Source of the DNA: Flaccisagitta enflata
Lineage: Eukaryota
Reading direction: 5' to 3'
DNA length: 64,000 bases
Assembly: GCA_965153355.1 (NCBI GenBank)
Contig: OZ231126.1
Location: 36,270,001 to 36,334,000 of the forward strand
Every line of letters starts with the position of its first letter. Within the stretch, counting starts at the first letter, position 1. The translations under genes were made by a program, and so were the position numbers. This document shows, in pieces, positions 19,627 through 60,532 of this stretch. The notes beneath the pieces were generated by a model. That model made no database searches and had not been told where the DNA came from. It saw only the letters and a program-made list of their open reading frames with translations.

Positions 19627-19761
<135 letters not shown>

Positions 19762-32061: not shown

Positions 32062-32704
32062 TAGCCTGTACTGAATTGACTAAAACCAAAAAAATCGAAA
32101 TTCTACGAGCAGTTCATGTTGTGGAGCTGTCTTGGGCTTCTATTGTCATCATTTTCAGCTTCAAAAGTTTACATCTTGCTTTCCGCGCCTTACCTTGAAC
32201 TTCCCATAAGTCAATAGGAAACTAAAAATTTCAAATTGCTCATATCAAAATTTTGACTGCAGATTTGAAATCTGCATGAAAAACTGTCTGTTGAAAGTGC
32301 TTTTCTTTTTGCCAAATTCCCTTGGGATCATTATCAAAATCCACGCTAAAGATTTTTAAAGAAGGTAAGTTCAATGATTTTACAAAGAAATTAAAAGGAA
32401 AGATATGTTTCGCGATATTTGACAGCACTTTTGACCACCTTCTAATTGGAATATCAAAAAAAGGAAAACACTTTCAATTGTCAGTTTTTTCTGCAGATTC
32501 CAAATCTGCAGTCAGAATTGGAATTTGAGAACTTTGAAATTTTGGATTTCCTATAGGGGTAGGGATTATAGAAGGTAAGGCGCGGCCACCTAAAAGTAGA
32601 ATTTTAACGCCAATATTAATTTCAATAGAAGCCTGAGAGTCCCACAACATGATCTGCTCGTAGAATATCAATTTTATTGCTTTTTGTCATTAAGGTACAA
32701 GCTA
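32062..32704. mobile_element. hAT-like long-TIR MITE, copy 2
   Basis: 8 bp TSD atgcccag; termini tagcctgtac ... gtacaagcta; homologous to 30414-31057 and almost the same length. Confidence 0.85.
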
Positions 32705-33024
32705 ATGCCCAGGCTGAGATTCAGCTTCGGCCATTTTCAAAAACAATTTTATTCAAGTTTCTTATCTAAAAAATGAATTTAATTCAAATTTTTCAGAAAT
32801 ATAGGTTGTTTATCTTTAAAAATGATTTCATTTCTTAGTTTGCCTATGAAATCAGGCATTATATTAAAAAAAATATAACAATTATTAAGTTTAAGATACA
32901 ACTGCTCTAAATAAGGTATTTTCATACAATTTAGACATTCATGAACATCGAACAAATTAAGAGCACTTTAAGAAAATTTCAAGCTGAAAACAGACAAAAA
33001 TTTAAGAACACCCAGGCTGAATTC

Positions 33025-33402
33025 AAACAAGGTCAACAAACCTTAGTCGCGTGGTGATAAAGGTAATTAGGGTAATTAAGGTAATTAAGGTAATAAAGGT
33101 AATAAAGGTAAAAAAGGTAATAAAGGTAATAACTGTTCCCTTAAGTACCATAATAATACAAGTACCTTTAATAATACAAGTACCTTTATTAAAGGTAATC
33201 ACAGTGCCCTTAAGTACCTTAAGTACGGTGCCCTTAAGTACCTTAAGTACCCCAAAGTACCCTAAAGTACCCTTAGGTACCCTTATGTACACTAAAGTAC
33301 CTTTAAAATGAAGATTTAAGCTTTATTTCAAAAATGTTACGTTACGTTACCGACCGACTAACCGACATAGCGGCTTCTAGAGTCGCGTTCACGCGACTTA
33401 AA
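33025..33402 (-). mobile_element. DINE-1/HINE-like element with 9 bp and ~10 bp arrays
   Basis: On +: aaacaagg...agtcgcgtg, (AAGGTAATW)n and (AAGTACCYT)n arrays, (CCGA)n, agtcgcgttcacgcgacttaaa. Confidence 0.75.
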
Positions 33403-33640
33403 GCTGTCTCTTATATAAAAAAAAAAAGTGTAATGGGATATGTCATTACTCAACTGGCACTCAACTTAAATGAGCTAACTACCCCGTATTTGCAAGTTTT
33501 AATGACATCTACAGTAACTACATAGAGATGGAACAGGATACGAGTCCAATACCATAAGTTTACTGATAGTTTATGTGATAATGGCCAACGTAGCCAGAAT
33601 GCAAAGTATTTGATAATTAATCATCACAAAAAAGTTAATA

Positions 33641-34251
33641 CCATCTAGCTCATAAATATACGGACAGCTGGAGAAAAATAAGCATTTTGGCTCACTGTCT
33701 GAAAAATATGTTCAAATAAATTAAATTTTAGTCATCATAGGGTATTTTGATCCAACAAGTGCTTCTGTTTCGAGTTTCTATCTGATTGGTCTATGATTTT
33801 TTAATTCAAATCAGTGTATCCTGAATTTCTTAAAAAATAACAAAAAACATTGATTTCTTTTTCATTTTCTTTTGATAAAAGATAATTTTGGAGAAATATA
33901 TTAAATTGCTGCCTTCAATTTTTTTTCAACACAAAAGAAATTTGGTAAAAATGTGATCTAATGAGGTCAAGCAGAATGATTTTTGCCAATCCATTTGGAT
34001 TTAAGAGCTGTTTCTATAAAGTTGTCCGTTGTCAATATGAACTGAAAATCTCTGAATTTGACTTCGGTAAGATGACTGTTTTTCTTTAAAACACTGTCAT
34101 TTCCAAACGGATTGAGCCACTGAGCTCTGCTTGGTCTTGAATGGAAGACTTATTGTCATAGTTTGTTGATCTGCTCTCATTTTTGTATTGAATATTGAAA
34201 TTTAGCTGCTATGAACATGAGTAGGTGTCCGTATATTTATGAGCTAGATAG
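33641..34251. mobile_element. Tc1/mariner-like MITE
   Basis: TA|ccatctagctcataaatatacggaca ... tgtccgtatatttatgagctagatag|TA. Confidence 0.78.
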
Positions 34252-34407
34252 TAGAAACTTTTTTTTCCGAGACACAGTTGCAGTCGATGCTCATTTCCAT
34301 TTTTGAGAATTGGTCACATTCTGACGTTATGGCAATGTACTGACAATTTTGGACATCTTGGCTGAAATACCCTATTCGTCAATTGAATCACGTTTGCATC
34401 TGAACAC

Positions 34408-36292
34408 TAAACAAGGCCAAGAGATGTCCAATAGATGCGTCCTCTTTAGATGTAAGATATTTTCATACAAATTATTAAGATATAAAGATATTAAGATATA
34501 ATGATATGAAAATATAAAGATACAGAGATAAATACAAAAATATAAACTGATTCCTCCCTTTCCCCCACCCCCCCCTCCTCCCCACCCTCCCCCCACGCCC
34601 CCCCACCCCCTCACGCCCCCCAACGCCTTCCCACCCCCCACGCCTCCCCACCCCCCAACACCTGCACGCCTTCCCACCCCCCCCACACCTCCCCACGCCC
34701 CCCACGCCTCCCCACCCCTCCCCCGCCTTATCCTCACAAAGAGACATGAAGGGACTTGGAGAGACATAAAGAGACATGAAGAGACATGAGGAAACATGAG
34801 GAGACATAAGAGACATATAGAGAAATGAAGAGACATGAGAGACATAAGAGACCTAAGAGACATAAGAGACATAAGAGATGTAAGTGATATAAGAGGCATA
34901 AGAGATATATGAGACATAAGAGACATACAGGAGACATAAGAGACATGAGGAAACATGAGGAGACATAAGAGACATATAGAGAAATGAAGAGACATGAGAG
35001 ACATAAGAGACCTAAGAGACATAAGAGACATAAGAGATGTAAGTGATATAAGAGGCATAAGAAATATAAGAGACATGAAGAGACATGAAGAGAAATCAAG
35101 AGAAAACCGTAGAAATCGTGTTTTGAAAATTTCTTGTGACGGACGTAGGTAGGGACACACCCTCTCATAGAGATGCGAGGACGCATCTAAAAATCTCAGG
35201 ATCATGTCAAAATTACGGGATTGTACCGTCCATCCCATACTAGATGAATTTTGACACCAGGAATCCAAATCTGCAGTCAAAAATGGTGTCAGGTCAATAT
35301 TTCGATAGCCTATGGCTACAACTCTCAGGTCAAATTACTATGTAAGGTCAAATTTTCAAGTTTGAAAATTTGTCAATCTGATTGCAGATTCAAAATCCTT
35401 GGAAAAAAAACAAAATGTCTTTCTTTTCTTGAAATTTTGAGTGGAACATAGTCAAAATTAACGTCAAAGATCCAAAATAGAGTAAAATTGCTCTTTTGTC
35501 TAAATTTGACCTCATTTTGATTGATGATAATAGATACTTTCTTCACACAGTGTTTTGCCAAAATTTTGAATCTACTATCTAGGAAATAAGTTTGGAAGCA
35601 CCTTTAGAGAAAAATATCTCCAATCTTGTCTCTGTGCATAAAACCGTTTAGAAATGCCAATACATTGAAGTTGATCATGCACAATGACAAAAAAAAAAGA
35701 TTTTTTTTTCTCCTACCTTTCCATTATTGAATTGCTTTCAAATCTTACCAAATGATGATAGAAACATGCAGATTGCACCGATGGTTAGCTCTTGAGCTCA
35801 AGTTTTATTATCTCATGGATTTTTGGTCAGATTACAAAAGGGAAGTAGCCCAATTTTGCAGCAATAATGATCAAGATATATCATTTTTACCACAACCACC
35901 TCTTAGTTGTGATAAATAAACTAAACTAGCGGTTCCTCAATTAGATTGAAGATTGCTTTTCTCCTTTGTTCTAATTAGCATGAATATAGAAATAACCAGA
36001 AAATAGTCAGGTTCATGAGTTTAGAGTGTATAAGGGGAAAACATACTACAAACCCCAAGTGCTTCCAAACTTTTTTCCTAGATAGTACAATCAGATTGAC
36101 AAATTTCCAATTTTGAAAATTTGACCTTAAATAGAATTTTGACCTGAGAAATGTAGCCGTAGCCTATCGGAATATTGACCTGAGACCATTTTTTACTGCA
36201 GATTTGGATTCCTGGGGTCAAAATTGGTCTACACTGTAGTACGGGATGAACGGGAAAACCCAAGAATTTTGACATGATCCTGATATTTTTTA
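34408..36292. mobile_element. Mutator-like long-TIR element with 10 bp TSD; a HINE is inserted in its left terminus
   Basis: atctgaacac direct repeat at 34398-34407 and 36293-36302; ~200 bp IR 35190-35385 vs 36088-36292. Confidence 0.72.
34409..35193 (-). mobile_element. DINE-1/HINE-like element, same family as 17554-19364
   Basis: Reverse-complement match of both termini, the (AAGAGACAT)n array and the C-rich tract. Confidence 0.85.
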
Positions 36293-36468
36293 ATCTGAAC
36301 ACCGCAGTACTACATTAAGGTTCGGCTAAAATTCTACCTAAATACCACCGTACAAATTTGGTGGTACAATACTGGGACTGTATGTGCTATGTACAAGGTA
36401 AGAAATTCAGTGTTCAAAAGGATGTGATGAATTTATCCAAAATAACGACGGATTATGGCAAGAAACAA

Positions 36469-37057
36469 CACGCCACGGGGGAGGCTTTCATAGGTCAAGA
36501 AAAATTCTTGGTCATAATGGCGAGTGGTTTGGGCCTCACGAAGGTTTACTTTATCACCTCATACCAAAACGATTTTTTTTTTGCTCCAAAATGGCATAAA
36601 ATAGTACTAAATGATGACAGGTTGGCGTGTATTTATGCATGAATGTGTCTTAGTGCCAGAAAATCATCATTTGCCCATTTTTTTACCATAGCGGCAGTTT
36701 GGACCCAAAAAACTGTCAAAAATGCTATTTTTACGGCTTTTTACGGCAAATTTTGCGGCACAAAATGATATTAAATGATGACAGGTTGGCTTGTATTTAT
36801 GCATGAATGTGTCTTAGTGCCAGATAATCATTGTTTGCCCATTTTTTGACCATAGCAGCAGTTTTGAACAAAAAAACTGTCAAAAATGCCAATTTTACGG
36901 CTTTTTACGGCATTTTACAGCATTTTTAAAAGAATTTTGAAGCAAAAAAATTTTCATTTTGGTATGAAGTGATAAAGTAAGCCTTCCTAAGGCCCAAACC
37001 ACTCACCATTATGACTGAGAATTTTGATTGACCTATGAAAGCCTCCCCCGTGGCGTG
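36469..37057. mobile_element. CAC...GTG TIR MITE with 4 bp TSD (Chapaev-like)
   Basis: ACAA|cacgccacgggggaggctttcataggtcaa ... ttgacctatgaaagcctcccccgtggcgtg|ACAA; ~125 bp TIR; internal ~164 bp tandem duplication. Confidence 0.78.
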
Positions 37058-37237
37058 ACAATCAGCAGTCTCGATCACTCAAGTCTCAACCTTGTCAAGC
37101 AAGGAATTAGGGAATTTTACCCGCTCAGATTTCCGAGCGTGCGTACGTGCACTTTGGCCTAAGGCGAGCGTGTACAAAGTGCGCATGCAAATTGCAAGCG
37201 AAAGCGAGGGCAGCAGCAGCGGAGGACACTGCATCCG

Positions 37238-37356
<119 letters not shown>

Positions 37357-37870
37357 GCATTTGGATAAGACGCGTCCTTCCATTGCCGTCACGTGACCTG
37401 TACTGCAGATGGTAGCGGTCTGAAGTCGACTGTATCGTTGATGATGATGATATTGTTGTTGTCATTCTGCCGGTCTCTCCCTCTCTCTGTTTCCTCTCCC
37501 ATCTCTGCCTCGTTTCGATGCCATTTGATGATTGTCAAAAGCGTTGTTTAAACACGCGACATGTGACGTTTCGCTTGTCGGTCGATGTGCAATATCTCTC
37601 GCATAGCCTCTTCTCGTTCGGTTGATTTTGCCACTTTTGTATATGGTGGAATAGAGTCGTGTCGGCCTCGAGCTGCGTCGTCATCGTAGGAAGTAGCAGA
37701 GGAAACCCCTATTGGTTCTGCCACACTGGAATAACACTGCCGTTCCATGCCATGAATTCAATTTTCATCTAATAAGATACAATCAATAACACAAGTCGTT
37801 TGGTGAACACTACAATACATACCTACTGCCATACCAAACGAGATCTTTCTGTGGCTTTACAAAAGGCATT

Positions 37871-37974
<104 letters not shown>

Positions 37975-37981
37975 CGCGCCT

Positions 37982-38587
37982 ATGATGGAAGAGACGATGA
38001 ACACGTTAAATTCCACTTGGTCCCGTTTCCATCTTTTCGTCGGATCCTTGGCCAAAGACATGGACGAGCCATTGGGGGATCTGATGGCCTCCGCATCGGC
38101 CGCCTTCACTTCCTCCTACACATCCGCTTCTTCTTCGGCGACTTCCTTCGCCAACGCGGCGTCGACTTCCTTCCACTCCCAACTGGAGTCGGCGTCGTCT
38201 TTTTGGCGATGGGCGTTGAGCGTTTCCGACCCGCGCGTCGTCGATTGGCCTTTGATGTCGTCTCCGTGGCCAACCGCGTTACTCACCCTCACTTACCTCG
38301 TCATCGTCGCCGTCGGTCCCAAGTTCATGGAGAATCGGAAACCGTTGGATCTCCGTTGGTTGATGGTGACTTACAATTTGTCGATGGTGGTGCTTTGTAC
38401 CTACATTTGGGTGGAAATCACCGTCGGCGCTTTGAGACGGAACTACAGTTGGATTTGTCAACCGGTTGTCCACGATCCTCATCCCGAAGAACTGAGAATC
38501 GCGGGAGGACTTTGGTGGTTCTTTGTCTCCAAGGCCATCGAATTTCTCGACACTTTTATTTTCCTTCTTAGAAAAAAATCCTCCCAG
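37982..38587 (+). CDS. ELOVL4: Very-long-chain fatty acid elongase, ELOVL4-like, coding exon 1
   Basis: SDPRVVDWPLMSSPWP, GPKFMENRKP, WWFFVSKAIEFLDTFIFLLRKK; phase-0 donor cag|GTAAAG at 38588. The exact start Met is uncertain (several in-frame ATGs). Confidence 0.9.
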
Positions 38588-38914
38588 GTAAAGAATTTAA
38601 AACACACACGCACAACCGATCTGTTCTTGTTTTCTTTACCGTTTCACCTGGTTCATGCAATCATGCATAAATCTCTAGTCTCTGAGGCCATTTCGTCAGG
38701 CGATCTGCTGTAAGTGGTTGGTTCTTTAAAAAAGGGCAATTACTCATCGATCATCGTTCCTGAAACTTACCTCAATCCCCTGATTATTCCCTTTTTTCCC
38801 CTTTTGTACGTTCTTTTGTTATTTAATCCATAATTTTTTTTCTTCTTATGATTTTCTTTCTATGCTTTTTCTTCATTTCTCTCTTGAACTATTTTTTCTC
38901 TCTTTCTTTTCTTT

Positions 38915-39097
<183 letters not shown>

Positions 39098-39200
39098 CTC
39101 TTGAACAATTTTTTTCTCTCTTTCTTTTCATTTCTTTCTTTCTTTCTTTCTTTCTTTCTTACTTTCTTTATTTTTCCTTTTCTTTCTTTCATTTTTTTTC

Positions 39201-39303
<103 letters not shown>

Positions 39304-39314
39304 CAACAACTCAG

Positions 39315-39773
39315 GTGACATTCTTGCACGTCTACCACCACGCCACGATGTTCTTCTTTTGGTGGATCGGGATCAAGTGGGTCGCTTCCGGTCAAACCTT
39401 CTTCGGCCCCATCATCAACTCCATCGTCCACTCGGTCATGTACACTTACTACGGTCTGGCCGCCATCCCGAGCATGAGACGCCATCTGTGGTGGAAGAAA
39501 TACATGACTTGGCTGCAGTTTTTCCAGTTCGGCATCGGCCTGGTTTGGGGCGGAAACACGATTCGTCTCAACTGCGGCGTGCCGCGTTGGATGCAGTGGG
39601 CGTCGCTCGTCTACGGCGTCTCCATCATCGCGCTCTTTGTCAATTACTACATGCAAACTTATCACAGAGGAATCTGGCGAAGAGCTTTGGGGAAATTTTT
39701 GAAGGGAAGATCGGATGGGGTAAAAACCGAAGATGAGGGGACGGCCGCGGTGGTGGAAAAGAAGAAGGATTGA
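39315..39773 (+). CDS. ELOVL4: Very-long-chain fatty acid elongase, ELOVL4-like, coding exon 2
   Basis: Acceptor ctcAG|gtg after a (TC)n tract; VTFLHVYHH histidine box, WWIGIKWV, NSIVHSVMYTYY, LWWKKYMTWLQ; C-terminal KKKD di-lysine ER-retrieval motif. Spliced protein is 354 aa. Confidence 0.92.
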   Translation: MTFLHVYHHATMFFFWWIGIKWVASGQTFFGPIINSIVHSVMYTYYGLAAIPSMRRHLWWKKYMTWLQFFQFGIGLVWGGNTIRLNCGVPRWMQWASLVYGVSIIALFVNYYMQTYHRGIWRRALGKFLKGRSDGVKTEDEGTAAVVEKKKD

Positions 39774-39829
39774 ATGGAATTCCCAGTCTTTGATTGTTCT
39801 TTTTTCATCAAAGAATGGATCAATGACTA

Positions 39830-39955
39830 AATGAATAAATGAATGAATGAATGAATGATTGAATGATTGAATGAATGAATGAATGATTGAATGAATAAAT
39901 AAATGAATGAATGAATGAATGATTGAATAAATGAATGAATGATTGAATGAATGAA
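39830..39955. repeat. (GAAT)n tract in the elongase 3' region, containing AATAAA motifs
   Basis: Directly visible. Confidence 0.8.
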
Positions 39956-40008
39956 TTAGGGGAGGAAACTGATGAACTCATTGTAAATCATATTTATTAC
40001 TTCAATAT

Positions 40009-40073
<65 letters not shown>

Positions 40074-40898
40074 CTTGATCCATCTTGTTCCATTTTGACT
40101 CGCAATTTTTCCATTTTTCTTTATTTAAATTGAATATTATTTCCGTTGAGTCACTAATTTTTAAAAGCGTCAACTTTCAAATTCAATTATCATTTTATTG
40201 TTACGTTGCCTTACATGATTTACGAAAAGCCAATCATCGTTTCTCGGCCAAGAATCTTGTTTAAATCATGACCCATTTAGTTACAATACTGGATAATGGC
40301 ATTACGTTCTCAGCCAACACTCACCTCTACATTACGCCTATCTGGATGCGTAGAATGGTGGAAATGACCCAATGCACCCTGTTTATTTTATTTTTGATTT
40401 TTATTTATTTTATTTTTTTGCGAAAATGAGTCATTGTATTATCTAAACATCAATGAGAAACCGTATTTAGGGTCCTAGGTAGTGAAATATACGAAAATAA
40501 TAAAAGGTTTTCTTAGGGATTATTAAGGAAATTCCCACATTCTAATTTCTTCATTTATTTCTTACAGACCCTAAATATGGTTTTTGATTGATTTTTTTTA
40601 TTTTTTGGCAAATAAAAAGATAACCAGAGCGCATCAATTATTTTCATTATTCTGTGTCTCGGCATCCTGACAAGCGTACTCTACATACTCGTCAAGAATT
40701 CCGGGCCTTAACTTTTTTGTCTTTATTTTTCCCCACATAATTTTTCTAACCATCTTCAGTTTTTTTGTTTTCAAAGCCCATATTTTTTTAGGATTGTGTC
40801 AATAACTCTACAGTGTCTTTCTAACTTTTTCTATATGAATATCAAAAAATAAAATTCGAGCGTAATTTTGTCGAGTTCTCTTTTATACAGAAGAATAA

Positions 40899-41501
40899 CT
40901 ACCCGAATTTAAAAAAACGCAAGTTTCTCATTGAAGTGATTGAATAAGACTATCTTTTCCTTCTGAGCAGCATTTTGTAAGCTGGTTTGGTTTATTTGAT
41001 GTTCCATGGATCATACCCAAGAGTTTGTCTTCAGAATCAAGCTGATGCGGAGAAATCGCCATGCAAAAGTGACATATACTTTATAAGTTTTTGCCTTTGA
41101 TTTTCAGTTAAGAGTCCATGATGATTTTAAAGGTTTTATTGTAACTAATCATATTCGCTGCTTCATTTTTCATCACAGACATTGAGGAACTCAAATACAA
41201 AAACTATGAAAGCAGACAGCATGGGTTAAACAATGTCTGATTCCTCATGGCGGTGCAATTACTCCATCACCCTCACCCCAAAATAATTTTTTTTTCCCTC
41301 TGACTGCATTTTCAAATTTGGACCCCTGCACCTTCTTTTGAGTATAACTTCTAAACGAATAAAGCTACAGATGTGGGATTGCGCTCAAACGAAAGCCCTT
41401 GAAAAAAGCTTTAATCTGGTCACCGATAAATCATGTCTCAAGCGAACCAAAGGCGCATAAATGAGCCACAGAAAAACTTGCGTTTTTTTTAATTCGGGTA
41501 G
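40899..41501. mobile_element. Tc1/mariner-like MITE
   Basis: ctacccgaatttaaaaaaacgcaagttt ... aaacttgcgttttttttaattcgggtag|TA; the left TA is not intact. Confidence 0.68.
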
Positions 41502-42486
41502 TACAAATACAAATACGGTCAATACACCGATGCTTAATCACTCTGTTGATAAACACCTGTCAGGTAAATAAGCCAGTTGAATTACATGACAGTATGAAAG
41601 AAAGGAGAAATAAGAAAAAATCAGTTTTTCGTAAGTTATTTTGTCTGTCATTACTAACATATTACATTAGAGTAAAAGAGAATATCATCTTTCCGGAAGC
41701 CGGTATGATCCTGTAATTGAATACACCTCAGCTTTCCAGTTTTCCAATGACGAATTGCTTAAATTGAAATGAAAATTCATTCAACGGGTTCTGTTAAGTT
41801 GAGAGGTTCATCAGAAGGCGGATGTCGCGCGGTCGGAAGTCATGATTGTTAAGCACTTAATTTCCCAAATTCTTACGGGCTGATTAAGATTTCGTCATAC
41901 TAAATTTCACAATGCTAGAATCTTAGAACATAAAACGAAAATGTCATCGGCATGATGATTGGTAGCATGGATGAGATGACGCAGATTGTTAAGCAGAGAA
42001 TTGACGTCTTAGACGGGATTACCAGACTTTGGGCATTATCAAATGAAGGCAAAAGTGTACTTTCAGATCTGTGCCAGTTTCCGCGATGACTACTTGTCAG
42101 TCAATTGCGTTGCGCTTATTGACGTAACGTCATGCGTAAGCCTAATTCGTCACCAGGGCATCAATAACGTCATACTCAATTGGGAGTTCAACACTGTCCC
42201 TCTTAAACGTCAATTACGCTCCAATTAACAGAAAGTTAGTTAATTGCATAATTGGTTAGTGTCTCTCCGAATGACGTGTATTGGCTTTGCGCAAATCGTA
42301 TGAGGTGATTGGTCAACAGGCGCAATCATCCAAAAACTTAAAAAGTATCTCGAATGCGTTATGATGTAACACTTTTCATTGCATTTCTACAAAACGAGAA
42401 GATGTTCAGCCGGTTTCAGTCCAGTTTCCGCTTTCCGTATTTTCTCTGTTTATCGCCCCCTCCCCCCTTTGTCAAGCGCCCTCTCC

Positions 42487-42926
42487 CTTTTTGGGCAGCG
42501 GCCCCAAAGGGGTCGATGGCCTATGCTTTCACACAGGGGGGTTTTCTCCTTCTCCTCCTTTGTACCCCCCCCAACCTCCAGGCCCATATGTAAGCCTCAA
42601 GGCCCATATCCCAGCCCTGAGGCCCAAATCACAGTCTTGAGGCCCAAATCCCAACAGCAATGCCCAAATCCTATCTTGAGGCCAAAATCCCAGCCTCGAG
42701 GGATTTGGGCCTCAAGACTGGGATATGGGCCTCAAGGCTTAGATATGGGTCTGGAGGTTGGGGGAGGGGGGACGGAGGAGGAGGAGAAGGAGAAAATTCT
42801 CCTGTGTGAAAGCATAGGTCATTGACCCTTTTGGGGCCGATGCCCTGCTCCCCCTTCAACTTCAAACACAACATGCTTAGGCAGAGTAGGGGTACCGCTG
42901 ACCATCTAAGGCTTTTGCGACTATTT
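42487..42926 (+). mobile_element. HINE-like element family B (GACCTATGC subtype, palindromic central array)
   Basis: ttttgggcagcggccccaaaggggtcgatggcctatgc ... ggtaccgctgaccatctaaggcttttgcgactattt. Confidence 0.8.
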
Positions 42927-43027
42927 CACTTCCCAAATTAGGGTCAGATAAGAAATCATGAGAGGAAATTTTAAGTGCTATGGATTTTTGATTATTTAGT
43001 AGAGTTTTAAATGTTTTATTGTCAATA

Positions 43028-43634
43028 ACAGGATGAGCAAAAAAATTTGCACAACTCTGATAAAGAAATGAAAAATAATGCAATGTAGAGCAAATACCAT
43101 CATGATATGAATTGAATACTTAATTTTAGTAATCAATAATACTAATGAACCAATACAATTGACTATAGGCTATAAATATGGTCTGGCAAATGAATTATTA
43201 TCATGGTCACATATTGTCTATGTGCCATGATTTTGACTGTTCCCTTTATCAAGTGGTATGATTATTTTTTTCATTTTGTGAGATATATCTAAGCCCCTTG
43301 ACCCAATTATCAATTGTTATGACTATCTGACATCAAGGTTACAAGTTGTGTATGACAATGACTTGCAGAGGATGCCAAGCAGGAGAAAAACACTGGACTG
43401 AGTAAAGTTTCCATCCCTTTAAATTTGGCCGGTAAAATTCATGCAAAATCTGACTGTGTGGTTCAACTTTGATGCCTCCCAATGGCAACAGAAATTTGAA
43501 AAGTGAATGACGGCCCATACTACTGTCCAGTAGGACTTATTGTGGGGTTATGGTTCAAATTTCATCTTATCAGGGCACCTAGAAGTGCTGATTCTATACC
43601 CATATGTTTGTGCAAAAATTTTTGCTCACCCTGT
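43028..43634. mobile_element. Tc1/mariner-like MITE
   Basis: TA|acaggatgagcaaaaaaatttgcaca ... tgtgcaaaaatttttgctcaccctgt|TA. Confidence 0.72.
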
Positions 43635-43745
43635 TAGTAATGCGAATTTTACTCTAGAATAGACTTCAAAAGAAAAACAATACTTATTATATCAATCTGC
43701 AATCTGCAAAATGAATTATTCTTTTCATGGCTGAAGGGGGCGTTA

Positions 43746-43870
43746 TTAGTCGCGTGCTACGCGACTCTACACTCCACTTTGTCGGTCCGTCCGTCGGTAC
43801 GTCCGTCCGCCACACTTTACTTTTTGCCCACCCGCACGTGACTTGGGTAGCCGTGTATCCGGCCTTGTTT
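43746..43870 (+). mobile_element. Minimal DINE-1/HINE-like element
   Basis: ttagtcgcgtgctacgcgact, (GTCC)n, cacgtgacttgggtagccgtgtatccggccttgttt. Confidence 0.78.
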
Positions 43871-44328
43871 ACTGGATAAAATGGTTATATCATTTTTCAA
43901 TGTCAAAATTGCCCGGGCGCTAAATAGAGAAAATACGGTATCTAAATTATAATTGGATTTTACGAATTTGGCGGGCCCATCTTAGGGTCACAGAAAAAAA
44001 TTGAAATCAAATTGAAAACAGGAATTAAAACGTTTTTAGAACAAAAGAACCGACTTCCTCCGGAAACATTTCGATTTGAGTAATCTGATTTACCATTTAT
44101 GACTCATCAAAAAGTTTCGGGCGAACATAGGTATCAGAGGATAGAAACCGCAAGGTACTCAAACGACAGTTCAGATAAAGTTGGTTCGATATATGATAAT
44201 TACAAAACGCCTTTCCGCCTCTGAGATTTGTTTGAGACCTGGAACTAATTCCAATTTTGTTGCTCAGCTCAGACAGAATGAAAATCGAAAGTTTGAGCTC
44301 CTAGACGCTTGAGGAAAGGTTGAAGCAC

Positions 44329-44421
44329 TGAATGAATGAATGAATGAATGAATGAATGAATGAATGAATGAATGAATGAATGAATGAATGAATGAATGAA
44401 TGAATGAATGAATGAATGAAT
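44329..44421. repeat. (GAAT)n microsatellite
   Basis: Directly visible. Confidence 0.93.
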
Positions 44422-44748
44422 AAAAGAATGCATGATGAATAAACAAAAAAATGAATAAACGAATGTATCATGGAAAGAGTCGTCTTTGGAAGCTGTATTA
44501 AGTAGATGAATGAATGAAAAAGGTCCCACAGCACAAGAAATAATGGAACTGAGTATGCAGCAAACACTTGAGATTTTTCTACTAAGAGGATGAATGTCAT
44601 GGTAGTGCTCAGCGCCGTATGGGAGTCTATGATTTTGGGGGAGCCACCACCAATTTGTGTCATGACAACTTCTTAGTGTCCCGATCAATTTAAATAGTGT
44701 ATAGACATTAGACAACAGTGATTTTAAGTGCATATGGAAGCTGTTTGT

Positions 44749-44828
<80 letters not shown>

Positions 44829-45185
44829 GGTTGTGTGTCCCAACAAGGGGCCGCCATGGCGGCCCCGGCGGCCCCTTGCCATACGGCCATGGTAGTGCTA
44901 CGACCTGTCCAACAAAATTTGCACCTGCGAAACTTAACGTTCATCCGTAGGAATCATACTTCTGAACGGCCCAGTAAGCTGAAACTTTAATTAAAGTAGC
45001 CCAAAGTTATCATGACACTACAGTTTTAATTTTATCATACTGGGTGAATTAGAAGTATGCTTTTAATAGATAGATTTAAAGTGTTGCTGGTGCAAAAATT
45101 GTTGGACAAGTGTCATGATCGGAAAATCAGAAAATCAGTGGGTCATGTGGGCCTGGTTGAGAGACTAAACGGATCTGCTTACTGC

Positions 45186-45777
45186 TTGGGCAGCGGCCCC
45201 AAAGAGCCGATGTCCTGTAGAACGCATGAATTTTCATACATCTGTACACCCTTTTTTGAGTCACTAATTCAACCCTCTGGAGCCTAAAATCAGTTCTCTC
45301 AGACCTTGAGTGCCAGCTACGGTTAATGATCAGCCCCCCTAGCCCTAATATCAGCCATGACAAGTATGAATTCTGCCTCTTCTGTCCGACTATACTATCA
45401 GCCTCCTCACGCTTAAGTCTAGCCCTTTCAGGCTTCAAATCAGCTCTTTTACACTGAAAATCCGTCCTCTCAAGTCTGAAATCTGCTTGCTCAAGCATGA
45501 AATCATCCCCCTTGGCAAAATCTAACCTAGTTCTTACATCACCTTTTGAAACAGACTATGAATTCCGCCATTTTGGATGTGATATGTGCACCCTCAGGCT
45601 CTACCTCCAAGCCTTGCCTCTCCGAGCTGTTTCATATCACTGAATTTTGAAACTACATTCGTCTCCACCTTTAGAAATTCTATGCTCTATAGGCCATCGC
45701 TCTACTCTAACTCCACAACATCAATTGAGTAGGGCATCGAGTACTGCTTACCACATGCAATCCTCGGATTACATGTT
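45186..45777 (+). mobile_element. Degenerate family B HINE-like element
   Basis: ttgggcagcggccccaaagagccgatgtcctgtagaac head, decayed 21 bp array, decayed gggcatcgagtactgcttacca tail. Confidence 0.6.
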
Positions 45778-46029
45778 ACCCCCCCCCGCCGTGTAGAACA
45801 AGGATCAATCTAAAAGGTCAAACTCCCAATCACCGTCATCGGAATTCTTTTTGTTTTTCATCACTTGAATACGACCCGGATACACGAGTTACTTCGGGTT
45901 CAAAACCTTGGGATCTAGTTGTTGGGATTTCAATCCTTATTTCTTATTCTTGGCCCCTGCATTACCATTCAGTAAAACGCCTTATTTCTCAGAATAAGTT
46001 TTGTTAAGTACCTCAGAATGGATAAGATA

Positions 46030-46572
46030 CCGGGTGGACATAAAAAAGGTAGCTCTGTATCTGAATAAAAGAAAAACGGTCTTTAACTGTTTATTATGTG
46101 AATATTTGAAAAGATGAATCTCTGAATTTGTATATATGATTGAAATATACAAATTCAAATTATGTATGATAAACCAAAATAATTTTTTTGAGCAGTATTG
46201 CTTGTTTTTAGCTAAAAGTGTTAATTAGTTATTATTAGTGTTTTGGATGTGCATCTGGTTTTTTACTTAAAAAGTCTTGGTTTTTTTAGTTTCTTAAGAC
46301 CCACTTTTATTCAACTATCTTTGTTCACAAATAAATTATGTTAAAATCATTGATTTTTAATCAAATTCAAGCAAAATTCTTTAGGTGGTCCGTAATTCAA
46401 TTCAGTTTTTTAAAGATAAAATGAAAAATATTGATCCTCATAAAAAAATGTTTATAATGGAACATGTAGGCGAAGATCATATCTAGGTAGCTAAAAAAAA
46501 TTTTTTTACTTAGGAGAAATTTTAAAAGTAATATTGAAAAAATTAAAAGCTACCTTTTTAAAGACCACCCGT
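46030..46572. mobile_element. Tc1/mariner-like MITE
   Basis: TA|ccgggtggacataaaaaaggtagct ... agctacctttttaaagaccacccgt|TA. Confidence 0.65.
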
Positions 46573-46893
46573 TACCAGTCTGGAAATCTGGCTCCGTACT
46601 TTTTCCCTGCCTTTCTTATCGAAGAATAATGGAAAACAGGTTCTTTTATCGGTTTGGTTCTATTCGGCAATGTCAAAAAAAAAAAATAGAATTTTGGTGA
46701 TCGCTGACTGGCTTATCTCTCATTCTTACAATTGTACATGACGATGTGACTCGAAGCCAAACGAATGACTATCCGTCTGAGCAAAAACCCTGTATTTTGG
46801 GGATGACCTAAGTATTTGCATTTTTTCATATTCAACAAATTTGTGTCATTGAAGTTCGGATCTAGGTAGAGAGATCAGCACTCATTTTGAAAC

Positions 46894-47105
46894 TTTTTAG
46901 TCGCGTGCACGCGACTCTACAACCCGCTTTGTCCGTCGGTCGGTCGGTCGGTCGGTCGGTTGGTCGGTCGGTCGGTCACACTTTACTTTTTTTTACGATT
47001 TTAATCTTTTGACCTCCCTGCTCCTGCCCAAATGGTCTGGTGACCTCAAATATGGCCCCTGCCCACCCGCACGCGACTTCGGTAGCCGTGTATCCGGCCT
47101 TGTTT
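46894..47105 (+). mobile_element. DINE-1/HINE-like element (family A)
   Basis: tttttagtcgcgtgcacgcgact, (GGTC)n, gcacgcgacttcggtagccgtgtatccggccttgttt. Confidence 0.82.
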
Positions 47106-47756
47106 GTCTTAGCCAGCAACTTAAAATCCCTGATAAAATTTGGAAGTCGTGCAAAGCTGTTTTCCAGATGCATGTGGGTAACTGAAAATGTCATCAGCGT
47201 TTTCACCATTTTCTGTAGCGTCTTTGATATGTGAAAAACCTCCAGATTGAAATTAACAATCAAGATTCAGGATAAATGGACTCGGTCAGCATTCTTTATT
47301 CATAGCATTGACTCAATTGACTGACTAAAATTTCTTTTTCGAGGTCCAATCGGATTATCGGAATGCTTGAGAGCGGGTCGATTCAAGTAAGGATCGAGTC
47401 TAAACGAACTGAATCGCTTTGTCAAATGACAAATTTGGACTTAAGCATGTCAAAACTAAACCCCATTCTACCAATTAGAGGCATTTCTTCTTCCTTGAAA
47501 ACTAGAGGAATTGAACTTCTTCATTCCTGCCAATTCATGGCATTTTTTTCCTCTAATTAGCCAATTTTCGGCATTTTCTCATTCTTGCCAGTATTGCAAG
47601 AGTGTTTACATCATTACGACTTCAATGGTAGACAGGGAAAACGAGGATTTTCATGGGTTCGAATCCTGCGTTTTCAGCTAGAATAGTCGCAAAAGCGTTA
47701 GATGGTCAGCGGTACCCATTGCCCCTATGTGAGTGTATGTGGGCGTGAGGTAGTTA

Positions 47757-48348
47757 CTATCTTCACAATAGAAGTCTTTACACATGTTTTAACTGATATC
47801 TCTGGTCATATTAGCCCAATCTTTAAAGAATTCGTGGCCATTTTGAAGCCCTTCAAATTTGCAAGCGATCTACGCAAACCGCATATCTCTAACTCAATGC
47901 GTTCAAAAGTTATTCAACTTTGAATGAAATACTTTAATTTCTCGTTTACCATTTTCATACTATCCTCAAATGGTACAATTTTACTCCAAATTGAATTACT
48001 TCTATACGCATTGAGCTAGACAGATGCGGTTTGCGTAGACTGCTTGCAAATTTGAAGAGCTTCATTTATGTCTCCAATTTTTCAATGATTTGTTGAGTCT
48101 TTCTGGAGCTATAAGTCTAAATGTAGCGAAGAAAGGGGATCAAAAAAATGGCGAGAATGGTCTAGAGGGCCATCACCCCAAAATACCTCAAAATGCGCTT
48201 TAAAACACTTCCCAGGCAAATGGCCGCTGTAATTCAGTCAAATGGGGCTCACACTAGATATTGATGGCGCCACAATCGATTAGTATCCATTTTCACATCA
48301 ATAAATAAACCTATCTTCAAAGTGTAAAGATTTCTATTGTGAAGAGAG
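47757..48348 (+). mobile_element. Internally deleted Tc1-like transposon
   Basis: TA TSD; 27 bp TIR ctatcttcacaatagaagtctttacac with 2 mismatches; retains the transposase C-terminus. Confidence 0.82.
48127..48264 (+). pseudogene. Tc1 transposase C-terminal remnant
   Basis: Translates as RRKGIKKMARMV*RAITPKYLKMRFKTLPRQMAAVIQSNGAHTRY*, matching the Tc1-family ending W..I....L.....SMPRR..AVI...GG.TKY*. Confidence 0.75.
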
Positions 48349-53010: not shown

Positions 53011-53628
53011 AACTTTCTCATAACCATGGCAAAAAAAAAAAAAGAGACAACTTATTTAGCTTATTTCTGCTGAGCTAACGATATGAAATATAAAAAATCC
53101 ATGGCCGTTTGAAAGATCTGCAAAAGATCTTTCAAATGCAACGTTGCTGGTAGTTCTAGCTTTATTCGTTTAGAAATGGCACAAAAATGAATGAAAACAT
53201 TGCCATATTCAATTTTGCGATTCAACTGTATTCAAAAGGTTTTGAAAAGAAGTAATTCACTTTGAGAAGCTCTAACTTCTAAACGGTTTGAGTTACAGAT
53301 CTGGGATTGGTCTTGAATGAAAGAAAATTCAAAAATCTTTGAAAATACCTTAAAGAAAAAGTTCAAAAATATTTTTTTTCTCTGTTTTTTATGAACTAAC
53401 AAAAAAGTACAGCTTTTTCAACTTGGCTTTTACAGTCTTGACCATCTACTCTTTATCCCTATGTCATTTCTAAACGAAAAAAGCTACAACAACCAGCATG
53501 GTCCCATTTTGAAGATCTTTTGAAGATCTTCAAAACGGTCATGGATTTTGCTATGTTTTTCTCATTGGATGAATGTGAAACATTGAAAAACAGTTTGTCT
53601 CTTTTTTTTTTTTTGCCATGGTTAAGAA
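53011..53628. repeat. ~170 bp imperfect inverted repeat (probable MITE interior)
   Basis: taaccatggcaaaa...tttagaaatggca vs tgtcatttctaaacg...ttttgccatggtta. Confidence 0.65.
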
Positions 53629-53946
53629 AATAAAAACCATGTTTTTCTACAATATGTCAAAAAGTCGAAGACTGACTTCGACTTTTTTCCGACAATACAA
53701 GTGACCTAGGGGTTAAGATGCAGTCAAACCCGCTCCAACAGACCCGCTTTTGATGGAATTCGGTCGATAACGGAAACTATTTTTTGGTCCCTTGAAATCT
53801 ATTTGAGCGGGATTTAACTTTATCGCCGCGCACGGATGGGCGTCCTACCATCCCCCTCCCTTCACACACCTACACTAAAACTACAGCAAAAGCATCCAAA
53901 ACGCTCGTTTTTTCACGTTTCAACTCGAGAAAGAGAGAGAGAGAGA

Positions 53947-54014
<68 letters not shown>

Positions 54015-54118
54015 CACAGAGTTAGAGACAGAGACAGACAGACAATCAGACAAAGCTGACCTCAAGGCTTGCCTGTACCTAAATGACAAAAAGCAGTAAC
54101 AGTGGAATTCCCCAGCCG

Positions 54119-54359
54119 CACCTTGATCTGGGGGCTGAGAAAAACCCGAGATGAATCTAGCATGTTTCAATAGCTTAATTTACATGAAAAGCATACTTCT
54201 AGTTAACCCAGTGAGATGAAATTTTAACTGAAGCTCTGCAAAACCATTAGCTTTCTTCATGTAAAATTCATCTCACTGGGGCAACTAGAAGTATGCTTTT
54301 CATGTAATTTAAGCTATTGAGATTCATCTTGGGTTTTTCTCAGCCCCCAGATCAAGGTG
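54119..54359. mobile_element. Transib-like palindromic MITE with RSS-like termini
   Basis: 5 bp TSD agccg (54114-54118, 54360-54364); CAC...GTG termini; ~105 bp arms; both ends read CACCTTG-12 bp-AGAAAAACC. Confidence 0.85.
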
Positions 54360-54621
54360 AGCCGGTTCGTGTTGTAGATGGGTGGAAAGATAGACACAAC
54401 CTCTGATAGGGATGCGTGGATACATCTAACAATCTTTTTGGTCGGGGAGAAAATGCGGTTGTTTCGGTTGATGGTTTGATGTAGATGGTCGTTGGCGCTG
54501 CTTTATCACCTGAGCCTCATTTCTCCCGTTAGAGCGGAAATGACCGACGATTTGTTGACACTTAACGTCCTTTCGATGTCCTTCCTCCAAAATCGAAATG
54601 TCTCTCCACTGACGACGGCGA

Positions 54622-54724
<103 letters not shown>

Positions 54725-54830
54725 GGCTCTCTCTCACTGTGGCGGAGCCCATTGCAACTTTGCTCTTTGAACTCTTTTTTTTTTCTTTCAATTCTCCGCC
54801 TCTCCAGCATCTCTACTTTTCTTTCTCCCA

Positions 54831-55575
54831 TTTTTAGTCGCTGCCTAGCGACTCTATAAGAGGGTGTGTCCCTTGGTCTGTCTGAGTGAAACAGGAAAAT
54901 TTTGATGACGCGAAATCGACTGAAAAACGGATTTCTGACCATCACAGCTCCTGCCTGGCGTCAATACAGCCCCCGCCCACTCACATACAGTAGATGTCGT
55001 CTAGACTTGGAAATACGGGGGAATTCATTACAGGAAGACAAACTAACTTAAGAGACTGATATTTGGAATATAGACTAATAAAGAGATGCTTTGTTGCCCA
55101 TGGGTGTTGGTTGCTATGGATACACATTTTCATGTATTCACGCTAAAGTATCAATATTTTGAGAAAATTTTTCAGGGAACATTGTTTAAAATAAAATTTG
55201 CCACAACTTTCCCACAGTATGTTCTGTAAGAATATTGCTAGTTTAGCCATTGCTAGGGAGCGTAACTAAGTGTGACAGCCCTGTGATGCTCCCTAGCAAC
55301 CGCCAAACCAGCGATATTCTTACAGAACATACTGTGGGAAAGTTGTAGCAAATTCTATTTTAAACAATGATATTTTAGCGTAAATACATGGAAATGTATT
55401 TCCATGGCAACCAACACCCATGGGCAATAAAGCATCCTTTTATTAGTTTATATTCCAAATATCACTCTCTTAACTTTATTTGTCTTCCTTTAATGAATTC
55501 CCCCGTATTTCCAAGTCTAGACGACCCCTGCCCACCAGCAGCGACTACGGATTGGCCGTGTATCCGGCCTTGTTT
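54831..55575 (+). mobile_element. DINE-1/HINE-like element containing a nested foldback MITE
   Basis: tttttagtcgctgcctagcgact ... gcagcgactacggattggccgtgtatccggccttgttt. Confidence 0.7.
54996..55525. mobile_element. Foldback MITE (~250 bp arms)
   Basis: gtcgtctagacttggaaatacgggggaattcatta ... taatgaattcccccgtatttccaagtctagacgac; TSD not resolved. Confidence 0.8.
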
Positions 55576-57424: not shown

Positions 57425-57652
57425 TAAACTTTAACGAGTCTCATTTCTGACGTCCTCCTTTTTTTCACAGGTTTGCCCATCATATAAAAGAGAAAGACGC
57501 CGAACTTCTCGAGGTTGTCTTACTTCCGGCGCCGAGAAACGACGAGCACGCTAAATAGATGCCACTTTAAACAATGATAAGTTTATCTACTTTTTTAATA
57601 TGATTATCAAAAACCAAAAACATTAAAATAGACCGAAAAATACACCCGGACA

Positions 57653-58258
57653 ATGAGCACTAAAGTGAGCAAACCGCCGGTTTCGATCAGTCTCTCTGTG
57701 CCGGCAGCCACCGCTCCTCGACCACTGGCCGCCTCCATCCTGAGCACCTCCACCACCACCACCACCGGTTCTTCAGCGACGGCCGCATCTTCATCCACCA
57801 ACTCCCCCTCTTCTGCTTCCTCTTCCACCTCCATCTCCTCTTCCAACAAACTCTCTAACGAAAAATTGGGAATCTACAAACATCCATTATTTCCGCTTTT
57901 GGCGATTCTCTTCGAAAAGTGCGAGAAATGTACGATGCAGCCGGATTGTCCGGACGCCAAAACGGCTGACAAAGAAATCATCAACTTTATCAAAACCATC
58001 AACCGGAAATCGTCCACATCCTCCTCCTCCTCCTCCTCCTCCACCGCCTCGAAGCGCTATTTTACCGCCGACGAAGAACTGGATGACTTCATGACGAAAG
58101 CCGTTCAAGTTTTGAGAATTCATTTGATGGAATTGGAAAAAGTCAACGAACTTTGTCAAGACTTTTGCTCCAGATATATTCATTGTTTGAAAGGCAAGAT
58201 GCAAAGTGAAAATCTTCTCCGAGGGCCCGAAGAAAATCTTCCTTTAGGATTGTCACAG
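57653..58258 (+). CDS. PKNOX: PKNOX/Prep TALE homeobox protein, first coding exon (MEINOX HR1/HR2 domain)
   Basis: IYKHPLFPLLAILFEKCE ... KAVQVLRIHLMELEKVNELCQDFCSRYIHCLKGKMQSENLL; phase-0 donor cag|GTTAGA at 58259. A likely 5'UTR acceptor ttttttcacAG ends at 57470. Confidence 0.9.
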
Positions 58259-58264
58259 GTTAGA

Positions 58265-58772
<508 letters not shown>

Positions 58773-58828
58773 TCATTTTTGCTGCATTCAAAAACACTCA
58801 AATGCAACCGCCCAATTTCTATCCAAAG

Positions 58829-60532
58829 GTGTTGATGCAGTCTTCGACAAGCGATTCAAACTCTTCGCTCGTTTCTACGCCTCCGCCTTATTTCGCCTCT
58901 GACTCTGGAGAACAGCAGACGCCGAAAAATGATGCGACAGCATCTTCAGTCGAGATTGACAGAGACGACCGACCTAATCCCATCGTTCAAATCATATCCA
59001 CGCCATCGCCGGCTGCAGCGGCTGCGGCTGCCGCCGTGGCTGCGACAGGCGCCGGCGCGCCGATTTTGATCAAACACGCGTCCGTGGCGCCGATCGACGG
59101 CCACGTCAGTCCACTTTCTCCCAATCCCGTCAATGTCGCCGGCGCCTCCGCCGCCGCTGGTGGAGGCGTCTCTCTCGCAGTCGCCGCAGGTGGGCAGTTC
59201 GTTTCCGGCTCCACGGTCTTTCATATGGTTCCAACCCCTCGCGGTCTCGTGGCGCAGCCTTTGACGCTGCGCCATCCTACGACAGCCGCTACGCCGACCG
59301 TGGCGTTGCCAACGAAGAAGCCGCAGCAGCAGCAGCCGCCGCCGTCGACGTCTCCAAACGAAAATATCATTTCCGGTTCAACGCCTTTGTCGAAAATTGG
59401 CGCCCCGTTGCTGGGAAATCTCCACAGCGCATCCTCTTCTGTAACATCGGCGGCGTCTCTCTTGAATTCCTCCTCCTCATCTTCTTCCTCGTCAACTTCG
59501 CAGTCGAAATTTCACGACTTGATCGCGGCCGCTTACGGATTCTCCGACAAAGACGACGACGATTCCAACGACAACAAAAATGGTGGCAACAACAATAACA
59601 ATAACAACAATAGTAAACGCGGCGTTTTACCGAAAAAAGCCACCAACGTGATGCGATCGTGGTTGTTTCAACACATAGTTCATCCATACCCGACGGAAGA
59701 CGAGAAGAAACAAATCGCCGGACAGACCAACTTGACTTTGCTGCAAGTCAACAATTGGTTCATCAACGCCCGCAGACGCATTTTACAACCAATGTTAGAC
59801 GCTTCCAATCCCGCGGAAGCCAAGCAGAAAAAGTCTAAACCGCAAAATAACTCGAAACCGAGCGCGCAGAGGTTTTGGATCCCGGAAGTTGGTGGGCGCG
59901 GCGGTCTTAGTGGTGATGGAACTGGTGGAAGAGGCGGTGGTGGTGGTGGTAGGGTCGTAGGCGGAGGAGATGAAGATGCAGGAGGAGGAGGAAATGAGGA
60001 AAATAGCGTGGACAAAACTGCTGGAGCTCGTCGGACTGATCCGACTGATGGTGATCTTCATCACGCTACAAATAACGATGGCGAAAGAATGGATCATCAT
60101 CATCATCCTAAAGACGGCCTCGACGTCGAAAATTACGACGATGAAGTCGATGATGACGATGATGTTGACGGAGAATGCGTTATGGACTTGACTGTTTGTC
60201 CAAAAGAACGGGTGCAGAAAGATGATGTTAATGACGATGATGAGGTAGAGGAAAGGGAAAGTAGGGAACTGATGGATCAGGATAGAAATGATCACGCGCG
60301 GGAGAGTGAGGAAAAAGAAAGAGAAAACAATTTCTATGGAGAAAAGGAAAGAAGTGAAGGTGGAGGAGGAGGAGGAGGTGGAGAAGAGAGAGGCGAAAGA
60401 GGCGAAAGAGGAACTGGAGATGAGCGTCTCTTGTCGATAACGTCATCGTCACCAACTTCGCCGGCAACGAGTGAAGACTCTAATACGCCGAAGGATCTCA
60501 GCGTCAGAGACGACAGAATCTCTCATCGATGA
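58829..60532 (+). CDS. PKNOX: PKNOX/Prep TALE homeobox protein, second coding exon (homeodomain and acidic tail)
   Basis: [62 protein letters not shown] (PYP loop, Prep-type residues) at ~59615-59800. Acceptor is aAG|gtg at 58828; an in-frame alternative cAG ends at 58840. About 769 aa spliced. Confidence 0.92.

Follow-up and report, generated by a model that had tools for sequence, protein, structure and literature searches.

Genomic neighbourhood of the element

The window of this study, the whole stretch of 64 kb of DNA that was analysed, contains an open LINE reverse transcriptase frame, an ELO-family gene and a PKNOX/Meis-type TALE homeobox gene (Table 1). In addition, it holds a short foldback element, which has microsatellites on both sides and precedes the homeobox gene by 3.3 kb, as counted to the first exon visible. 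The exons of the homeobox and the ELO gene reached best named identities of 45-58%, with no close named relative being present in the protein collection. For the nearest ELO clusters Arthropoda was the commonest taxon, which can serve as a lead only. An invertebrate host would be consistent with these results. The homeobox gene exhibits long runs of valine, glutamine and serine that stem from in-frame microsatellites. The microsatellite load of the entire window is extreme, and most of the long 'ORFs' result from long runs of the (CT)n, (CA)n, (GAA)n-like and trinucleotide kinds.

The best listed relatives of the LINE reverse transcriptase shared up to 77% identity over a part of the frame and 71% over its full length. 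All among the 120 listed relatives are unnamed (113 from ENA, three from JGI, two from Logan, one from Logan plus ENA and one from merc). Since most of these relatives come from metagenome assemblies of ENA, environmental data seem to contain the host lineage in abundance, although it is not annotated there. A scan of 115 ORFs (at least 80 aa, low-complexity filter with entropy above 3.6, repeat-derived frames dropped) yielded only RVT_1, ELO, Meis_PKNOX_N, Homeobox_KN and Homeodomain above the Pfam cut-offs. Hence, no transposase was found in the window, and no protein family covers the foldback element itself.

Table 1. Features of the 64-kb window, with positions counted from its first letter.
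Feature	Position	Strand	Evidence and remarks
LINE reverse transcriptase, open 483-aa frame	19752-21200	+	RVT_1 9.7e-33; upstream of the MITE
ELO-family gene	37790-39770		ELO domain; upstream of the MITE
Target-site duplication, left copy AGCCG	54114-54118	.	direct reading; empty-site contigs
Non-autonomous foldback element (MITE), 241 bp	54119-54359	.	inverted repeats, fold, pair scan, contig ends
Left 28-nt terminus	54119-54146	+	heptamer CACCTTG 54119-25, spacer 54126-37, nonamer-like AGAAAAACC 54138-46
40-nt terminal inverted repeat, left arm	54119-54158	+	98% complementary
Inner hairpin	54167-54320	.	58-nt arms 54167-54224 and 54263-54320, 93%; 38-nt loop
40-nt terminal inverted repeat, right arm	54320-54359	-	98% complementary
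Right 28-nt terminus, equal to the left on the opposite strand	54332-54359	-	0 mismatches
Target-site duplication, right copy AGCCG	54360-54364	.	direct reading; empty-site contigs
PKNOX/Meis-type TALE homeobox gene	57632-60529	+	two large exons; Meis_PKNOX_N 1e-33, Homeobox_KN 1.4e-19

Boundaries, ends and fold

The boundaries of the 241-bp element could be read directly from the sequence. Each end consists of the heptamer CACCTTG, the 12-nt spacer ATCTGGGGGCTG and the nonamer-like block AGAAAAACC, and both 28-nt ends are identical. The 28-nt terminus has exactly two exact matches in the window, with any match occurring in 0 of 100 shuffles, and no further copy with up to three mismatches was found elsewhere in the 64 kb. 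Between the 40-nt arms, position 54330 is the sole mismatch. The duplication is exactly 5 bp long, since neither it nor the inverted repeat continues into the adjacent bases. The duplicated target AGCCG contains four G or C among its five bases, compared to a G + C-content of 39% in the surrounding region, a value that refers to a single site.

As single-stranded DNA, the element is predicted to form a single long hairpin with a free energy of -103 kcal/mol (z = -21), and none of 200 shuffles folded equally well. A scan of the window for pairs of CAC and GTG with a 14-nt inverted repeat (at most two mismatches) and identical 5-mers outside detected this element alone, and nothing in each of 20 shuffles. 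An earlier note on this DNA had described a 241-bp hairpin with a 5-bp AGCCG duplication, of which each end reads CACCTTG, exactly 12 bp and AGAAAAACC. The coordinates, the inverted repeats and the fold bear out the hairpin and its duplication, and the layout of the ends holds without any mismatch between the two.

In the predicted fold, nine extra nucleotides of the left arm (54159-54167) remain unpaired with the right arm. Three positions of this stretch (54160, 54162 and 54167) are among the 12 variable sites of the element family. The region from 53500 to 55000 also gave 13 Rfam matches with E<=1. All of them stayed far below the gathering scores (for example, MIR8562 with 77.8 vs 211 bits and MIR7533 with 70.8 vs 230) and a microRNA gene was rejected, because models of long hairpins fit any foldback.

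Repetition and mobility in public sequencing runs

A search of public sequencing runs with positions 54000-54480 returned 24 runs in 15 studies. Of the sampled words, 87% were contained in X1 and 74% in X2, two runs that belong to one study of the same organism (organism A), and the remaining runs, mostly marine metagenomes, contained 20-37%. Contigs of X1, X2, X3 and X9, representing three studies, were aligned to 54040-54480 with a likeness of at least 80%. The 20 other runs, in which a fraction of 0.20-0.30 of these words was present, are no evidence of habitat or range.

The alignment comprised 1640 contigs from X1, 1369 from X2, 121 from X3 and 76 from X9. In X1 the summed contig depth amounted to 98,000-648,000 in the bins of 54115-54354, and to 116-162 (bins 54040-54069) and 132-452 (bins 54370-54480) in the flanks. 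Depth summed over contigs does not equal copy number, and these values are to be read only as a family size of hundreds to thousands of copy-equivalents. Contigs of other copies, among the 32 pieces listed, start at 54116-54121 on the left and stop at 54358-54360 on the right. Furthermore, 23 contigs of X1 diverge just before 54119, and their flanks show an agreement of 0.39 among themselves. The single copy of which the earlier note had spoken is thus true of the window but not of the sequencing runs, in which the element is highly repeated. With its 241 bp, its non-coding sequence, its inverted ends, its duplication and its high copy number, the element exhibits the features of a MITE.

Two contigs were found in which position 54113 is joined to 54360, so that 246 positions (241 + 5) are skipped and five letters fit either side. 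One of them originates from X2, the second run of organism A (depth 53, shorter side 30 letters), and the other from X3, a marine metagenome (depth 2.9, shorter side 41 letters). Both joints were called at 80% likeness and may include extra letters between the two sides. These joined contigs are the unoccupied allele with a single AGCCG, and they independently confirm the 5-bp duplication for this one insertion. As the insertion is absent from some chromosomes, it is polymorphic, and the family has been active recently. Compared to the read majority, the copy in the window differs at 54248, 54249 and 54330. At the last of these, C makes up 96-100% of the read depth and T is private to the window copy. 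At 54162, 54266 and 54273 the window copy is in the minority or near parity. From this comparison, the window copy is taken to be young.

A second hairpin repeat lies at 44907-45107; its ends start with GTCCAAC, carry no CAC and are not accompanied by a clear duplication. The inner arms of the MITE match positions 45018-45067 with 82% over 50 nt (blastn, E 1e-8). A blastn search with the element within the window had no hits other than short fragments and the inner core that both repeats have in common (44952-45067). Loose contig ends occur within the MITE at 54183/54187 and at 54228-54233, and the sharing of the core with the repeat at 44907-45107 explains why many contigs match only about 54187-54233. 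This suggests that the MITE consists of Transib-like ends around a hairpin core that is common to another repeat family.

Close to the MITE on its upstream side, the stretch from 54070 to 54099 is repetitive as well, with a summed depth of 33,000-48,000 in X1/X2 compared to about 120-160 beside it. Matches of 22 nt to this stretch at 95% are present at 31031-31052 and 32678-32699. The MITE may have landed beside or inside another repeat.

Likeness of the ends to recombination signals

The heptamer CACCTTG matches five of seven positions of CACAGTG, the consensus of the vertebrate recombination signal sequence (RSS), and likewise five of seven positions of the Transib consensus CACAATG. The nonamer-like block AGAAAAACC agrees with the vertebrate consensus ACAAAAACC at eight of nine positions and with the Transib consensus AAAAAAATC at seven of nine (by eye). 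The counts of 5/7 and 8/9 that had been put forward before against CACAGTG and ACAAAAACC were therefore correct. With the base composition of the window, a nonamer of at least 8/9 is expected by chance with P = 1.5e-4 at one fixed offset and with P = 9e-4 over six offsets (11-13 and 22-24), where the two ends, being copies of each other, enter as one observation. It is unlikely that the RSS likeness of the ends is a matter of pure chance. For published Transib ends a likeness to RSS of <10^-3 is given in the accessible part of the source (PMC1131882), and the likeness of the element is of the same order. Only one other CAC site in the window, at 58526-58553, is followed by an 8/9 nonamer at 12 nt and lies in A/C-rich low-complexity sequence. 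A second A/T-rich block of the element at 23-nt spacing (54149-54157, AGATGAATC) was rejected as a candidate, as its six of nine matches to the Transib nonamer (by eye) correspond to the chance level.

Judged by sequence, the ends show the features of a 12-RSS: a CAC, a spacer of 12 +/- 1 and an A at positions 5 and 6 of the nonamer. The run of A in the 8/9 nonamer is intact, as in the vertebrate 12-RSS, from which the heptamer differs at positions 4 and 5. Unlike a vertebrate RSS, these sequences are the ends of a multi-copy mobile element and do not lie beside an antigen-receptor segment; the neighbours are microsatellites and non-coding DNA, and none of the 115 ORFs includes an immunoglobulin-type domain.

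Within the family, variants with a share of at least 10% in the four runs were observed at none of the 56 terminal positions, compared to 12 of the 185 inner ones (Fisher one-sided p = 0.038). The whole terminus hence looks constrained, or it is simply young. Heptamer, spacer and nonamer are equally invariant, so that conservation neither sets the nonamer apart from the spacer nor marks it as a separate functional unit. The sole variant terminus, from one contig of X3, carries changes at position 6 of the heptamer, position 5 of the spacer and position 2 of the nonamer. In the same contig the 28 nt are joined straight to 54168, with the next 21 nt being absent. This single case (n = 1) hints weakly at a conserved terminal module that extends no further than the nonamer.

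Discussion

The 241-bp element is probably a non-autonomous miniature of the Transib superfamily, which would be moved in trans by a RAG1-like DDE transposase. Its boundaries, its 5-bp duplication, its empty allele and its repetition are direct observations, on which this assignment builds. According to the accessible text of the original description, duplications of 5 bp set Transib apart from all other superfamilies of eukaryotic DNA transposons; its preferred targets are GC-rich, and its ends, about 38 bp in length, consist of CACAATG, a spacer and the A-rich nonamer AAAAAAATC (PMC1131882). The same source reports that the 5′ and 3′ ends of some Transib families resemble RSS12 and RSS23, with the RSS23 spacing being commoner, and that hAT ends contain a G instead of the C at position 3 (PMC1131882). 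The element carries a duplication of 5 bp, measured for one insertion, CAC...GTG ends with the C at position 3, and a 40-nt inverted repeat with a layout of 7 + 12 + 9 that includes the A-rich block. The designation as a Transib-type MITE, under which the earlier note had introduced the element, agrees with this duplication, the GC-rich target seen at this single site, the CAC/GTG ends, the 40-nt repeat, the non-coding sequence and the high copy number. Since duplication length and end sequence are described as labile within Transib in the available part of a further source (10.64898/2026.08.26.747230), both features are supporting and not decisive. Five scans of the collections viral_contigs, metagenome_contigs and genome_contigs for the terminus (two patterns, with N at positions seen to vary) yielded 0 loci each; as most of the material in these collections comes from prokaryotes or viruses, the result does not address the abundance of the family.

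Three other explanations have to be weighed against a Transib-type miniature. The single copy in the 64-kb window would be compatible with a local palindrome or an artefact of the assembly, and yet thousands of contigs in four runs from three studies, a depth that is greater by orders of magnitude than in the flanks, and a precise empty site in two contigs refute this reading, to which practically no credence can be given. If the element belonged to another or an undescribed superfamily, for example, a CACTA/Chapaev-like one with an atypical duplication, its RSS-like layout would be coincidental. CAC ends are indeed not unique to Transib. Elements of the CACTA, Mirage and Chapaev types also begin with CAC. 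In addition, the duplication was measured at one insertion only, and the equal invariance of spacer and nonamer within the family would fit a coincidental layout as well. Nevertheless, such an assignment appears rather unlikely to us, given that the duplication is exactly 5 bp in the filled and in the empty allele, that an 8/9 nonamer at the canonical spacing has a probability of about 9e-4 over six offsets, and that 5 bp are diagnostic of Transib among the eukaryotic DNA transposons, as stated in the accessible part of PMC1131882.

It is also conceivable that the element is mobilised by a RAG-like transposon (RAG1L-RAG2L, ProtoRAG-type) instead of a solitary Transib transposase. In the consulted part of the source, RAGL transposons share the 5-bp duplications and the CAC heptamer ends with the element, and one RAGL-A family from Ptychodera flava even possesses an AT-rich nonamer-like block (10.1101/2023.08.20.553239). 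There, however, RAGL-A and RAGL-B ends exhibit a conserved adenine-rich TR2 adjoining the heptamer (10.1101/2023.08.20.553239), whereas in the element the heptamer is followed by ATCTGGGGG and no adenine-rich TR2 is present beside it. As far as the source goes, no 12-spaced ends have yet been described for RAGL transposons, and RAGL-B ends come without the A-rich nonamer, a block that the element does have. The survey of 2020, in the part available, reports no RAG-like sequences in Arthropoda (PMC7204232); this carries little weight here, as Arthropoda is no more than the commonest taxon of the nearest ELO clusters. Overall, a RAG-like partner is considered to be unlikely.

For a Transib-type miniature, a cut-and-paste mechanism can be proposed by analogy with what is established for Transib and RAG, chiefly for Hztransib; the enzyme and the way in which it would cleave are inferred, as is a function of the A-rich block. 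A transposase encoded elsewhere in the genome would bind the two identical ends of 28-40 nt and cut exactly at the CAC. At a GC-rich target, the excised element would then be inserted with a stagger of 5 bp, of which the repair would give rise to the AGCCG duplication. The likeliest role of the A-rich block, which a 12-nt spacer separates from the heptamer, is that of a Transib equivalent of the nonamer, and thereby of a putative distal binding site of the transposase, a reading that we rate as about as likely as not. Over its entire length the element is a near-perfect foldback, and for this reason both ends have probably been copied from a single end of a parent element. The symmetric 12/12 layout may hence result from the foldback origin rather than from the architecture of the parent, of which the other end may differ from the 12-spaced one. 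A 12/12 pair is a plausible substrate for a Transib enzyme, and is at the same time a pair which the 12/23 rule of vertebrate RSS disfavours.

The closest known counterparts are non-autonomous Transib families with RSS-like ends such as TransibN1-N3_AG and Transib5, which, as described in the available text (PMC1131882), likewise combine a 5-bp duplication, a GC-rich target (a single site in the case of the element), a CAC heptamer, an A-rich nonamer-like block and ends of about 38-40 nt. An RSS12-like spacing is reported there for their 5′ ends (PMC1131882), and this spacing is shared by the element. Compared by description, the element differs in being 12-spaced and identical at both ends, in being a foldback over its whole length and in its host, which is a marine animal and not an insect. 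It also deviates from the Transib consensus, with CACCTTG in place of CACAATG and with a nonamer that is nearer to the vertebrate consensus (8/9) than to AAAAAAATC (7/9, by eye). The biochemically characterised Transib is Hztransib from Helicoverpa zea, for which the accessible parts of two sources describe RAG-like cleavage at CAC, hairpins on the flanks and 5-bp duplications, a mechanism that is presumed for the element as well, and which transposes a 12/12RSS pair without RAG2 (PMC4840297; 10.64898/2026.08.26.747230). Unlike the element, Hztransib has ends with little or no likeness to a nonamer according to the text considered here (PMC4840297). As this transposon works with ends that contain no clear nonamer, the A-rich block is not a general requirement.

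The literature search found no paper on the 241-bp family, which may already be catalogued in Repbase or Dfam. The wider conclusion of the earlier note, that the element would bear on when nonamer recognition arose, is not supported as new, since RSS-like Transib ends, including 5′ ends with a 12-nt spacer, were described in 2005, as can be seen from the accessible part of that paper (PMC1131882). The current picture thus remains unchanged, as the likeness of Transib ends to RSS and the descent of the RAG1 core from Transib have both been accepted knowledge from that year on. It is improbable, on our estimate, that the partner is a Transib/RAG1-like enzyme of a protostome or another non-deuterostome with a true nonamer-binding domain of the GRPR/K type, which reads a near-canonical nonamer at 12 bp in a symmetric 12/12 arrangement. 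If such a partner did exist, bipartite recognition of the RSS type with a vertebrate-like nonamer would be placed outside and before the deuterostome RAGL-A lineage, and the element would be a very active natural substrate for testing the recognition of the nonamer.

The element is a sound observation and a good experimental substrate, and it is unsurprising to specialists. What it adds is a very abundant and apparently still mobile family of the Transib type in a marine animal lineage, with ends that are strongly RSS-like in their 12-nt spacing and in the agreement of their nonamer with the vertebrate consensus at eight of nine positions. At its own locus, the insertion is polymorphic for presence or absence and lies on the upstream side of a homeobox gene of the PKNOX/Meis type, at a distance of 3.3 kb. 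If the transposase were found, it would form together with the element a convenient natural system for studying the recognition of the distal A-rich block by Transib enzymes and the importance of the spacing.
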